IMG/VR virus record: IMGVR_UViG_2778261385_000001
DNA from: a virus
Lineage: Duplodnaviria; Heunggongvirae; Uroviricota; Caudoviricetes
Strand: one strand, 5' to 3'
Length of the DNA: 25,458 bases
Shown: positions 20,443-21,219 of the stretch, in pieces
Position numbering within the stretch: the first letter of the stretch is position 1
How the letters are laid out: each line of letters starts with the position of its first letter
Position numbers and translations under genes: made by a program
Notes under the pieces: model-generated
The model's database searches: none
Seen by the model: the letters and a program-made list of their open reading frames with translations, nothing else
What the model was told of the DNA's origin: nothing

Positions 20443-20915
20443 ACCTCACTCTCTCTGAGCGTTCCGCCAGCTTCTTTGAATTTTGCAATCAGGCTGTCAG
20501 CCTTATGCTCGAACTGACCATAACCAGCGCCCGGCAGTGAAGCCCAGATATTGCTGCAACGGTCGATTGCCTGACGGATATCACCGCGATCAATCATCGG
20601 TAAAGCACCACGCTCTTTAATCTGCTGTAATGCCACTGCGTCCTGGCTTTTGGGGGAGAAGTCTTTCAAACCAAGCTGTTTACGGTAAGCATCCCACCAG
20701 CGTGAAAGAAGCTGATAACGTCCGGCGGCTGTTGATTTGAGTTTGGGGTGTAGCGTGACAAGTTTGCGAGGGTGATCGGAGTAATCAGTAAACAGTTCGC
20801 CGCCAACAATAACATCATAACCGTGGTTACGTGTCGGTTGTCGCCCGTTATCCGTTCCTTCTGACCACGCCAACATATCGAGGAAGGCTTTACGCTGAGG
20901 ATTAAGATTTTGCAT
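20439..20915 (-). CDS. R: Endolysin R (lambda-type lytic transglycosylase)
   Basis: 158-aa ORF ([42 protein letters not shown]...) matching lambda R except at the extreme N-terminus; SD GGGGTGA upstream. Confidence 0.93.
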
Positions 20916-21219
20916 TTTTCACCCCTGTCAGTCGTTCCCAGAAGTACGTCAGTGCAACCGAACCCATCGCACCACTAATCCCCGCTGTCGCGAGAATCAT
21001 GTAAATACTGAATCCACTTTCGATGCTGATCAGGCCACCAATAACACCGGTGAATCCTGATACCACTATTTGAGCCAGAGCATTTATCCAACTCCACGTT
21101 GCTTTACTCTGCTTCACATCTATCAGGTAGCGGACCAGACCGCCCCAACCTGCGATGATCAGCAAAACGAGCCAGAACGCTCCGGCAAGGCTCTCTTTTT
21201 CGTGCATATGAATAGCCAA
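20902..21219 (-). CDS. Putative class I holin (three predicted transmembrane helices); not lambda S
   Basis: Immediately upstream of R and overlapping its start; three hydrophobic helices (AGAFWLVLLIIAGWGGLV, WINALAQIVVSGFTGVIGGLI, FSIYMILATAGISGAMGSVAL) and a charged C-terminus; track start at 21219 is TTG, first ATG at 21207. Confidence 0.7.
   Translation of the reverse strand: MAIHMHEKESLAGAFWLVLLIIAGWGGLVRYLIDVKQSKATWSWINALAQIVVSGFTGVIGGLISIESGFSIYMILATAGISGAMGSVALTYFWERLTGVKNAKS

Follow-up and report, generated by a model that had tools for sequence, protein, structure and literature searches.

The S105 and S107 proteins of phage lambda, like the holin described below as far as predicted, are class I holins of about 105 amino acids with three transmembrane domains. 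Directly upstream of S lies the C4/G5 hairpin (sdi), whose 3′ arm is the Shine-Dalgarno (SD) sequence (CCCCUUAUUGGGGG). In S107, an extra basic residue, Lys2, gives the long form its antiholin character, and the deformylated N-terminal amine also adds charge (PMC6116005). In lambda, a dual start of this type gives an antiholin because the additional basic residue holds helix 1 out of the membrane. Another holin family includes gene 13 of Salmonella phages. In phage L, the amber mutation 13-am43 turns codon 50 of the gene 13 holin from CAG into TAG (PMC8022706); the genetic evidence for a role in lysis comes from this homologue, which is 73% identical to the holin examined here.

The DNA analyzed, a stretch of 25,458 nucleotides referred to below as the window, carries a lysis cassette on its minus strand that is transcribed in the order Q, holin, R and Rz/Rz1, with bor lying beyond on the opposite strand. 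Its features are as follows.

19656..19949, plus strand: bor/iss serum-resistance lipoprotein gene (PF06291, 105 bits; Iss or Bor in RefSeq)
19981..20442, minus strand: Rz i-spanin (PF03245, 181.7 bits; 94% nucleotide identity with lambda)
20040..20222, minus strand: Rz1 o-spanin lipoprotein, inside Rz in another frame (PF06085, 72.2 bits)
20439..20915, minus strand: endolysin R, lambda-type lytic transglycosylase (similarity to lambda R; PDB 1am7 match)
20898..20915, minus strand: module junction, that is, the overlap and the first bases past the holin stop (similarity boundaries)
20902..21219, minus strand: holin ORF, 105 codons from TTG; 101 amino acids from ATG 21207 (20902..21207)
21217..21219, minus strand: TTG, probably a vestigial first start, aligned with ATG1 of the family dual-start motif
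21225..21248, minus strand: hairpin with the degenerate SD GGCGGCG (21231-21225) as its 3′ arm (MFE and centroid fold)
21321..21347, minus strand: second intrinsic terminator, GCCAGC-TACAT-GCTGGC then TTTTTTATT, in the gap between Q and the holin (terminator scan)
21425..21461, minus strand: intrinsic terminator, 12-bp stem and T-run (terminator scan)
21517..21545, minus strand: candidate late promoter, pR′-like (-35 TTGCAA, 17-nt spacer, -10 TATATT; 9 of 12 consensus matches)
21529..22218, minus strand: antiterminator Q, of the Gifsy-1 type and not lambda Q (PF06323, 312 bits)

In our judgment, this region is probably a Q-dependent lysis cassette within the late operon of a lambdoid prophage common in E. 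coli, built from interchangeable modules and carrying a vestigial dual start, with one functional holin of 101 amino acids from ATG 21207. Behind Q comes a leader with a promoter-like site and two terminators, and the holin module brings its own translation-initiation region. The cassette itself is a common prophage module that had been deposited and annotated before and is already known.

In tblastn, Q showed 69% identity to Gifsy-1 Q. Lying immediately downstream of Q, the pR′-like site would serve as the late promoter, and the terminator at 21425..21461 would then end a leader RNA of roughly 75 nt, by analogy with lambda tR′/6S RNA. An Rfam match to isrJ at 21434-21513 scored 30.4 bits, under the gathering score of 37, and nothing else but a spurious miRNA match came out of the Rfam scan of 19500-22500. 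We found no separate antiholin gene in the manner of P1 lydB or T4 rI: between the holin and R there is no room for one because the two genes overlap, and none was evident in the Q-holin gap, where the sole ORF of at least 30 amino acids on the cassette strand (21281-21388, 35 aa) crosses two terminator-like hairpins. At the far end of the window, the 461-aa ORF at 135-1520 on the plus strand had no Pfam match and is likely antisense within the tail-fibre gene J, which itself runs off the window.

For the cassette as a whole, we propose that Q would carry RNA polymerase through the leader terminators, and that the holin would build up in the inner membrane in its N-out/C-in three-helix form and then trigger to form holes. 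The cytoplasmic R transglycosylase would reach the murein after hole formation, and Rz/Rz1 would then disrupt the outer membrane. Rz and Rz1 show the features of an embedded two-component spanin, and the Rz1 translation contains the lipobox LVVVGC.

The holin matched PF16083 (Phage_holin_3_3) at 77.6 bits (cut-off 28.4, E 8e-22) and the PHROG 785 'holin' profile at E 5.5e-40, the latter match beginning at residue 5 of the ORF, while no NCBIfam model matched the holin or R. By sequence similarity, it belongs to PF16083 / PHROG 785, a family also termed 'LydA-type' that includes the gene 13 product of Salmonella phages ST64T, PS3 and L. Across this family Met5 is nearly invariant, and neither the PHROG nor the Pfam profile begins before it. 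An earlier note on this DNA, made from the sequence alone, had called the protein a three-helix holin, and the transmembrane topology check agreed, hydropathy and the positive-inside rule giving concordant predictions. The hydrophobic stretches cover residues of about 8-33 and about 47-89, and we read the second as two transmembrane domains, probably divided at a short S-I-E-S turn around residues 65-68. Charges lie in loop 1 (R30, K36, K39) and at the C terminus (R96, K101, K104), and the AF2 model has helices at 2-36, 44-68 and 72-98 with a pLDDT of 71. The holin is thus predicted to be of class I, with three transmembrane domains, an N-out/C-in orientation and a charged cytoplasmic C terminus.

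The frame opens with TTG-GCT-ATT-CAT-ATG, as the same note had described. On the minus strand, the TTG occupies 21219-21217 and the ATG 21207-21205, three codons lying between them. Since an in-frame NTG falls within four codons upstream of a start with a chance of about 17% (1-(61/64)^4), the TTG is meaningful only because it aligns with ATG1 of the homologues. In a one-genome-per-species scan and in phage records, from which the family diversity was drawn, relatives carry the motifs MAKRM, MAKHM, MKRM, MRM and MKM, with ATG, a strong GGAGG and an SD-sequestering hairpin; the homologue of Serratia phage Eta is annotated with a 'possible dual start motif'. Among the best 120 protein clusters, all N termini reaching past the conserved Met have at least one Lys or Arg between the two Mets, except for the MAIHM/AAIHM clusters, which belong to the E. 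coli clade of the window holin. In this clade, TTG has replaced ATG1 (sister alleles have GCG or GTG), Ile has replaced Lys, His has replaced Arg, and GGAGG has become GGCGG. Of 80 viral-contig loci, 76 had TTG at the start position, 3 had GCG and 1 had GTG; all were E. coli prophage copies 98-99% identical and served for start-codon counts only. The TTG allele had matches in 875 complete E. coli genomes, 801 of them at 99% identity or above, and the GCG allele, which has no start codon at this position, occurred in 132 with a holin otherwise 98-99% identical.

The locus formally retains one feature of a dual start, two in-frame starts one to three codons apart, with TTG as the first. The basic residue between the starts is missing, the extension being Ala-Ile-His instead of AKR, AKH, KR, K or R, and so is a conserved upstream start served by an SD, as the clade has TTG, GTG or GCG there and a weakened SD. 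Neither start has a strong SD, as had been noticed from the sequence: SD/anti-SD pairing amounts to -5.0 kcal/mol upstream of TTG and -1.5 upstream of ATG, compared with -9.5 to -12.3 in relatives. The likeness to the lambda S107/S105 pair that had been suggested for the two starts holds for ancestry but probably not for present function, given the lost ATG, basic residues and strong SD.

On alignment, the hairpin at 21225..21248 corresponds to the one that sequesters the SD in relatives, and it is likewise equivalent to the lambda hairpin. Across 17 homologous leaders, 90% of the hairpin cells were paired, compared with 36-64% in slid registers, and one pair showed an A-U to G-C exchange. Measured against shuffled sequence, the leader fold had no significant excess of stability (z -0.70), so that support for the hairpin is comparative rather than thermodynamic, and modest because the compared sequences are related. 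Folding prediction places the G of TTG and the next GCU codon in base pairs and the ATG in an A-rich loop.

Taken as part of the explanation that we hold to be probable, TTG-A-I-H-ATG would be a vestige of the family motif ATG-[A]-K/R-[R/H]-ATG with GGAGG in a small hairpin. Decay of the motif in the E. coli clade would leave a single functional holin of 101 amino acids, and the gene most likely makes this one functional species from ATG 21207. A TTG-initiated product of 105 amino acids, lacking the needed charge, would be unable to act as a lambda-style antiholin, and we infer that no such antiholin is made and that antiholin function has been lost. That the long form acts as an antiholin elsewhere in this holin family is itself suggested by analogy with lambda, 21 and P22. 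Existing annotations differ, with RefSeq WP_000544528.1 beginning at ATG 21207 and the record of Escherichia phage PhiR47_2 at TTG; the RefSeq choice is not independent evidence, because PGAP also starts many ATG1-bearing relatives at the second Met. A literature search found no study on the start sites of the WP_000544528.1 holin. The SfIV paper concerns other holins, and the PhiR47 preprint goes no further than using a related phage panel.

Other views of the starts were weighed against a single functional holin from ATG 21207. TTG could be the principal or sole start, the holin then being the 105-aa protein annotated in the PhiR47_2 phage record and the ATG coding for an internal Met. The only SD-like sequence, GGCGGCG, does lie 5-7 nt upstream of TTG, none being found within 14 nt of ATG, and as this GGCGG is ideally spaced, about 7 nt away, TTG could account for part or even the bulk of initiation. 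However, GCG alleles are widespread yet unable to start there, Met5 is nearly invariant and the profiles start no earlier, and the predicted fold ties up the G of TTG while leaving the ATG in its loop. Moreover, the second ATG of the MAK[RH]M relatives likewise has no SD of its own, so that a missing SD is no argument against use of the ATG. On balance, we consider TTG as the main start unlikely.

Rather improbable is a dual start that still functions, with TTG 21219 giving a 105-aa antiholin, ATG 21207 giving the 101-aa holin and their ratio setting lysis time as in S107/S105. Consistent with it, the in-frame starts stand three codons apart exactly at the position of the family motif, the SD-like element is correctly spaced from TTG, and the hairpin over the SD remnant has been kept, its A-U to G-C exchange being compensatory; a longer N terminus retained in the cytoplasm would also gain charge on deformylation. 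Against it stand the A-I-H extension without Lys or Arg, where every other member with a called N terminus long enough to cover the extension carries one or more, the non-start GCG in the 132 E. coli genomes with nearly identical holins, and a poor initiator, TTG, behind an SD weakened by about half.

As S107 takes part of its charge from the deformylated amine, a weak antiholin effect of the longer N terminus is conceivable. It is a faint prospect, in our view, that a 105-aa form would be made at low level from TTG 21219, gated by the hairpin, and act as a conditional antiholin charged by the deformylated amine together with H4 and H6 rather than by Lys or Arg. If this were true, lysis timing would be tied to cytoplasmic pH or energy state, and the GCG alleles would represent naturally occurring antiholin nulls of the gene.

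The cassette had also been described as a mosaic, in which a non-lambda holin is joined to lambda-type R/Rz/Rz1, and the alignment of the S-R junction against lambda bears this out. Megablast places the beginning of the 94% similarity at lambda 45510, corresponding to window 20898, the base following the S stop, and from there the similarity spans R, Rz, Rz1 and bor. Blastn with a word size of 7 moved this start to 20910, and similarity to holin-family relatives bearing other endolysins ends at 20909. The holin 3′ end and the R start overlap by 14 nt; in all relatives examined, the holin is likewise first in the lysis cassette, upstream of and overlapping the endolysin, whose ATG sits within the conserved holin C-terminal codons. 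Five endolysin types were found behind this holin family (lambda-R type, GH24, M15 peptidase, GH108+PG_binding_3 and GH19), all starting inside the holin 3′ end, and because the start codon is embedded there, these unrelated endolysins have a common MQ(T/I/N) N terminus.

The holin was also confirmed to be of another family than lambda S (PF16083 versus PF05106): PF05106 was absent from the hits of the ORF, whereas lambda S itself scores 105 bits with it, and neither BLASTP (E=9) nor hhalign (0.5% probability) found a relationship. A strongly diverged lambda S, with an S-R region continuous with lambda and no recombination junction, would fit the near-equal length (105 versus 107 aa), the three helices, the acidic/basic N terminus (HEKES versus PEKHD), the Pfam naming of both as 'holin superfamily III' and the MKMP start that some relatives share with lambda S, but it is effectively refuted by these searches, by an abrupt rise in nucleotide identity at the holin stop, from undetectable to 92-94%, and by four other endolysin folds joined to the same holin at the same point.

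Holin and lambda-type R form an old, common combination rather than a notable junction, as judged from comparison of sequences: an Enterobacter prophage has the same pairing, co-diverged at about 75% nucleotide identity. The arrangement of modules is normal lambdoid lysis-cassette modularity, that is, textbook module swapping.

R had been said to differ from lambda R only in its first eight or so residues. This did not hold in full: with 148 of 158 amino acids identical, four of the ten differences fall in residues 2-6, and the six others are scattered at residues 27, 56, 63, 152, 155 and 156. Residues 2-6 read QNLNP in place of the VEINN of lambda R, a change imposed by the other holin 3′ end; R starts MQNLN, not MVEIN, because its first four to five codons are written inside the conserved C-terminal codons of the holin. 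The residue aligned with Glu19 of lambda R, which we take to be catalytic, is also Glu, in WSEGT. R was matched by PDB 1am7 at E 5.7e-100, and no Pfam model hit this lambda-type R.

The Q-holin-R query was found in 804 of 5426 complete E. coli genomes, O157:H7 included, counting those with at least 80% of the 831-nt query (Q end, holin and R 5′ part); defective prophages may account for many of these copies. Beyond annotation, the importance of the locus is small, and for the clade the start to prefer is ATG 21207 (101 aa). What emerges is a widespread E. coli clade of gp13-type holin that has lost all three hallmarks of the dual-start motif of its family, and with it a natural allele series, from MAKRM with GGAGG through TTG-AIH with GGCGG to GCG-AIH, that could serve to test antiholin loss against lysis timing in nature.

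Compared with known systems, the nearest are copies of the cassette itself. PhiR47_2 (PV340567.1) is 99.9% identical over the full stretch from Q to bor, with the same gene order, and differs in annotation by its TTG start and by an R split into two CDS. The E. coli prophage cassette in RefSeq (WP_000544528.1), including that of E. coli O157:H7, has 99.9-100% nucleotide identity and the same order; the bor homologue is named Iss in some genomes. To lambda, the R-Rz-Rz1-bor part is 92-94% identical in nucleotides (lambda 45500/45510 to 46796), and the arrangement of Rz1 within Rz and bor on the opposite strand is lambda-like. The window holin has no detectable sequence homology to lambda S, and yet it shares a short acidic N terminus predicted to cross the membrane, its family has an equivalent of the lambda hairpin, and the lambda MKM is mirrored by the family motifs MKM, MRM, MKRM and MAKRM. 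Unlike S107, the window allele has an extension without Lys or Arg, TTG as first codon and a degraded SD, and for these reasons the feature that makes S107 an antiholin is absent. The gene 13 holins of Salmonella phages L, ST64T, PS3 and ST160 are 72-73% identical to the window holin from end to end and match it in size and three-helix layout, and they too are encoded by the first lysis gene, downstream of Q/gp23, with the endolysin start in the 3′ end. The Salmonella phages differ in their M15-type peptidase endolysin where the window has lambda-type R, and phage L also has tRNA genes between Q and the holin where the window has none. At the start itself, the Salmonella genes read ATG-GCA-AAA-CGT-ATG (MAKRM) behind GGAGGTG, whereas the window reads TTG-GCT-ATT-CAT-ATG behind GGCGGCG.

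The lysis cassette reads from Q to Rz on the minus strand of the window, and its features are as follows.

Features of the lysis cassette.
21529-22218, minus strand: Q, PF06323 (Pfam)
-35 at 21545-21540 and -10 at 21522-21517, minus strand: promoter-like site 3′ of Q
21461-21435 and 21347-21331, minus strand: terminators 3′ of Q
310 nt, minus strand: gap between Q and the 105-codon ORF
20902-21219, minus strand: holin ORF of 105 codons, opening TTG GCT ATT CAT ATG; PF16083 (Phage_holin_3_3, 'LydA holin'), 77.6 bits
20439-20915, minus strand: R, with a 14-nt overlap with the holin ORF
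19981-20442, minus strand: Rz, PF03245 (Pfam)
20040-20222, minus strand: Rz1, embedded in Rz, PF06085 (Pfam)
19656-19949, plus strand: bor/iss, opposite to the rest of the cassette

Q is of the Gifsy-1 type (69% identity), and the promoter-like site and terminators that follow it fit a pR′-leader-terminator arrangement with Q readthrough. Rfam gave a match below threshold to isrJ, an Hfq-binding sRNA of Salmonella (21434-21513, minus strand; 30.4 bits against a gathering score of 37, E 0.006), which covers exactly the short leader from this promoter-like site to the first terminator. Given this exact coverage and the Gifsy-1-type Q, 'IsrJ' may itself be the homologous pR′ leader RNA (a 6S-RNA analogue), subject to antitermination by Q, of a Gifsy-type prophage. 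The window's Q-holin gap holds only terminators and no tRNA genes, whereas tRNA genes occupy this position in phage L (Asn and Leu; L107/L108 264-415), Klebsiella RAH1 (Gly; L002 1237-1311), and a Hafnia phage (Arg and Thr; L008 1223-1378). Outside the cassette, a 347-aa alpha/beta-hydrolase/esterase gene (24067-25110, plus strand; PF20434 BD-FAE, 154 bits, also Abhydrolase_3) lies directly upstream of ninB, in the opposite orientation to the phage early-right/nin genes, and looks like a cargo ('moron') gene; its equivalent in Escherichia phage PhiR47_2 is labelled hypothetical. Between bor and the terminase genes, a 126-aa ORF (18849-19229, minus strand) carries a TonB C-terminal domain (PF03544), and its PhiR47_2 equivalent is named 'Partial tonB-like membrane protein encoded within prophage CP-933N'.

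The earlier note's description of the sequence in the holin region was correct. The holin matched phrog_785 'holin' from residue 5 (PHROGs, E 5.5e-40). Three membrane helices were predicted from hydropathy and charge distribution, the second hydrophobic stretch (~47-89) being read as a pair of helices with a short S-I-E-S turn between them, and an AlphaFold model of moderate confidence (pLDDT 71) placed helices at 2-36, 44-68, and 72-98. Since basic residues occur in loop 1 (R30, K36, K39) and in the C-terminal tail, an N-out/C-in topology is predicted. That this holin differs from lambda S, as the note had claimed, was borne out by distinct Pfam families, a BLASTP E of 9, and a profile comparison giving 0.5% probability; a divergent lambda S was ruled out, as PF05106 was hit by lambda S and not by the window ORF. 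Among characterised relatives, gene 13 of Salmonella phages ST64T, PS3, ST160, and L comes closest (72-73% identity). Holin identity is 84-86% for temperate phages of Klebsiella and E. coli, 64% for Serratia phage Eta, and 53% for the Hafnia phage. The classical phage L mutation 13-am43 turns codon 50 of the homologue from CAG into TAG (PMC8022706), thus tying this family genetically to lysis gene 13.

Megablast aligned the window from 20898 down to ~19900 with lambda 45510-46508 (94%), lambda 45510 being the first base past the S stop codon (S, 45186-45509; R start, 45493), and the more sensitive blastn aligned 20910 to 19615 with lambda 45500-46796 (92.4%). Holin relatives with other endolysins (Klebsiella RAH1, ST64T) lose similarity to the window at 20909. 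The left edge of the holin module lies at ~21255, where similarity to an E. coli prophage with a different Q (L105) starts. R matched the lambda lysozyme structure 1am7 (E 6e-100) and was identical to lambda R at 148 of 158 residues; the proposal that it differs only in its first ~8 residues holds approximately, as four differences fall in residues 2-6 but six are scattered elsewhere. In all relatives the endolysin start codon is embedded in the conserved 3′-terminal codons of the holin; for example, ...AAG AAT GCA AAC CAG TGA (K-N-A-N-Q-stop) also holds ATG CAA ACC. Because of this embedding, the five unrelated endolysin types found after this holin family (lambda-R type, GH24 lysozyme, M15 peptidase, GH108+PG_binding_3, and GH19) all begin MQ(T/I/N), and the window's R accordingly takes its first codons (MQNLN) from the holin module.

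The mosaic interpretation is thus correct, but the mosaic is ordinary lambdoid module shuffling. The pairing of this holin with a lambda-type R is not special to the window: in an Enterobacter prophage, a MAKRM-type holin precedes a 158-aa homologue of R, both genes aligning collinearly with the window at ~75% nucleotide identity, and other E. coli prophages join the same holin and R to alternative Q genes or spanins. In two E. coli chromosomes the pair precedes different spanin genes (L105 1998-2435 and L106 2276-2834), one replacement being a 145-aa 'lysis protein' and another DUF2570 plus LysC, which indicates a second module junction at the R/Rz boundary; L105 differs further upstream as well, with another Q and one additional ORF. 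In a contig labelled Chryseobacterium sp. (CACSKA010000002.1), a holin of the enterobacterial type (MRMPNKDP...) precedes an endolysin resembling lambda R, and the contig's label may reflect assembly contamination or mis-assignment.

Public databases already contain annotated copies of the cassette. Of 5426 complete E. coli genomes, 804 covered at least 80% of an 831-nt query spanning the Q end, the holin, and the beginning of R, O157:H7 strains included, and among all records with a match, 693 reached at least 99% identity. PhiR47_2 is 99.9% identical over the full Q-to-bor stretch, and RefSeq names the holin 'phage holin family protein' (WP_000544528.1). R of PhiR47_2 (PV340567.1; L001 3686-4161) is annotated as two CDS (321 and 159 nt), with the window R intact at 158 aa; since the matched stretch is one base shorter in that record (1700 versus 1701 nt), the split is probably a 1-nt indel or sequencing error.

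By chance alone, ~17% of starts should have an in-frame NTG no more than four codons away, as simple arithmetic shows, so comparison with relatives decides what the TTG means. Homologues from Klebsiella, Salmonella, Enterobacter, and Citrobacter open with ATG-GCx-AAA-CGT-ATG (MAKRM), and others with MAKHM, MKRM (Serratia Eta, annotated 'possible dual start motif'), MRM (Hafnia), or MKM (Yersinia), the last identical to lambda S. In each of these homologues, the first start is ATG, preceded at 6-8 nt by a strong GGAGG(TG). Of the 120 best protein clusters, all whose N termini extend upstream of the conserved Met had at least one Lys or Arg between the Mets, except for the MAIHM and AAIHM clusters, the window's own clade. 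The window's TTG aligns exactly with the first ATG of its relatives, and four changes separate it from the nearest ones: ATG to TTG, AAA (Lys) to ATT (Ile), CGT (Arg) to CAT (His), and GGAGG to GGCGG. Predicted SD/anti-SD pairing is -5.0 kcal/mol in the window versus -9.5 to -12.3 kcal/mol in the relatives.

Upstream of the family's first start, a small hairpin with the SD as its 3′ arm is conserved (for example, CACCCCG-loop-CGGAGGUG and CCCC-UCU-GGGG). Across 17 leaders, 90% of the proposed pairs formed, compared with 36-64% in shifted registers, and one pair changed from A-U to G-C in four sequences, the window's clade among them. Lambda S has an analogous CCCCUUAUUGGGGG directly upstream, the sdi element. 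The window keeps the hairpin (21225-21248) around its degraded SD. TTG 21219 has an SD-like element at good spacing; ATG 21207 has none of its own. The leader fold as a whole was no more stable than shuffled sequence (z -0.70). In this predicted fold, base pairing takes in the G of TTG together with the GCU codon after it and leaves the ATG in an A-rich loop, an arrangement that is only suggestive.

The first codon of the holin ORF is not conserved within the E. coli clade: among 80 viral contigs it was TTG in 76, GCG in 3, and GTG in 1. The TTG allele was matched in 875 genomes (801 at ≥99% identity); 132 complete genomes carried the GCG allele, the E. coli type strain and one O157:H7 strain among them. 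As GCG is not a start codon, ATG 21207 is the sole start common to all alleles. Between holin and R there is no additional gene for an antiholin, nor is one apparent in the Q-holin gap. The dual start raised by the earlier note stands as a position homologous to the family's first ATG, but it is a relic of evolution and unlikely to be a functioning switch, given the GCG alleles and the missing Lys/Arg. Sequence comparison points to a vestigial motif as most likely, with the 101-aa holin from ATG 21207 as the single effector and no lambda-style antiholin. In lambda, S107 acts as the antiholin since Lys2 and the deformylated N terminus add positive charge that holds helix 1 outside the membrane (PMC6116005). 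Unlike S107, the window's Ala-Ile-His extension adds no Lys or Arg, so by analogy any TTG-initiated product should act as a holin.
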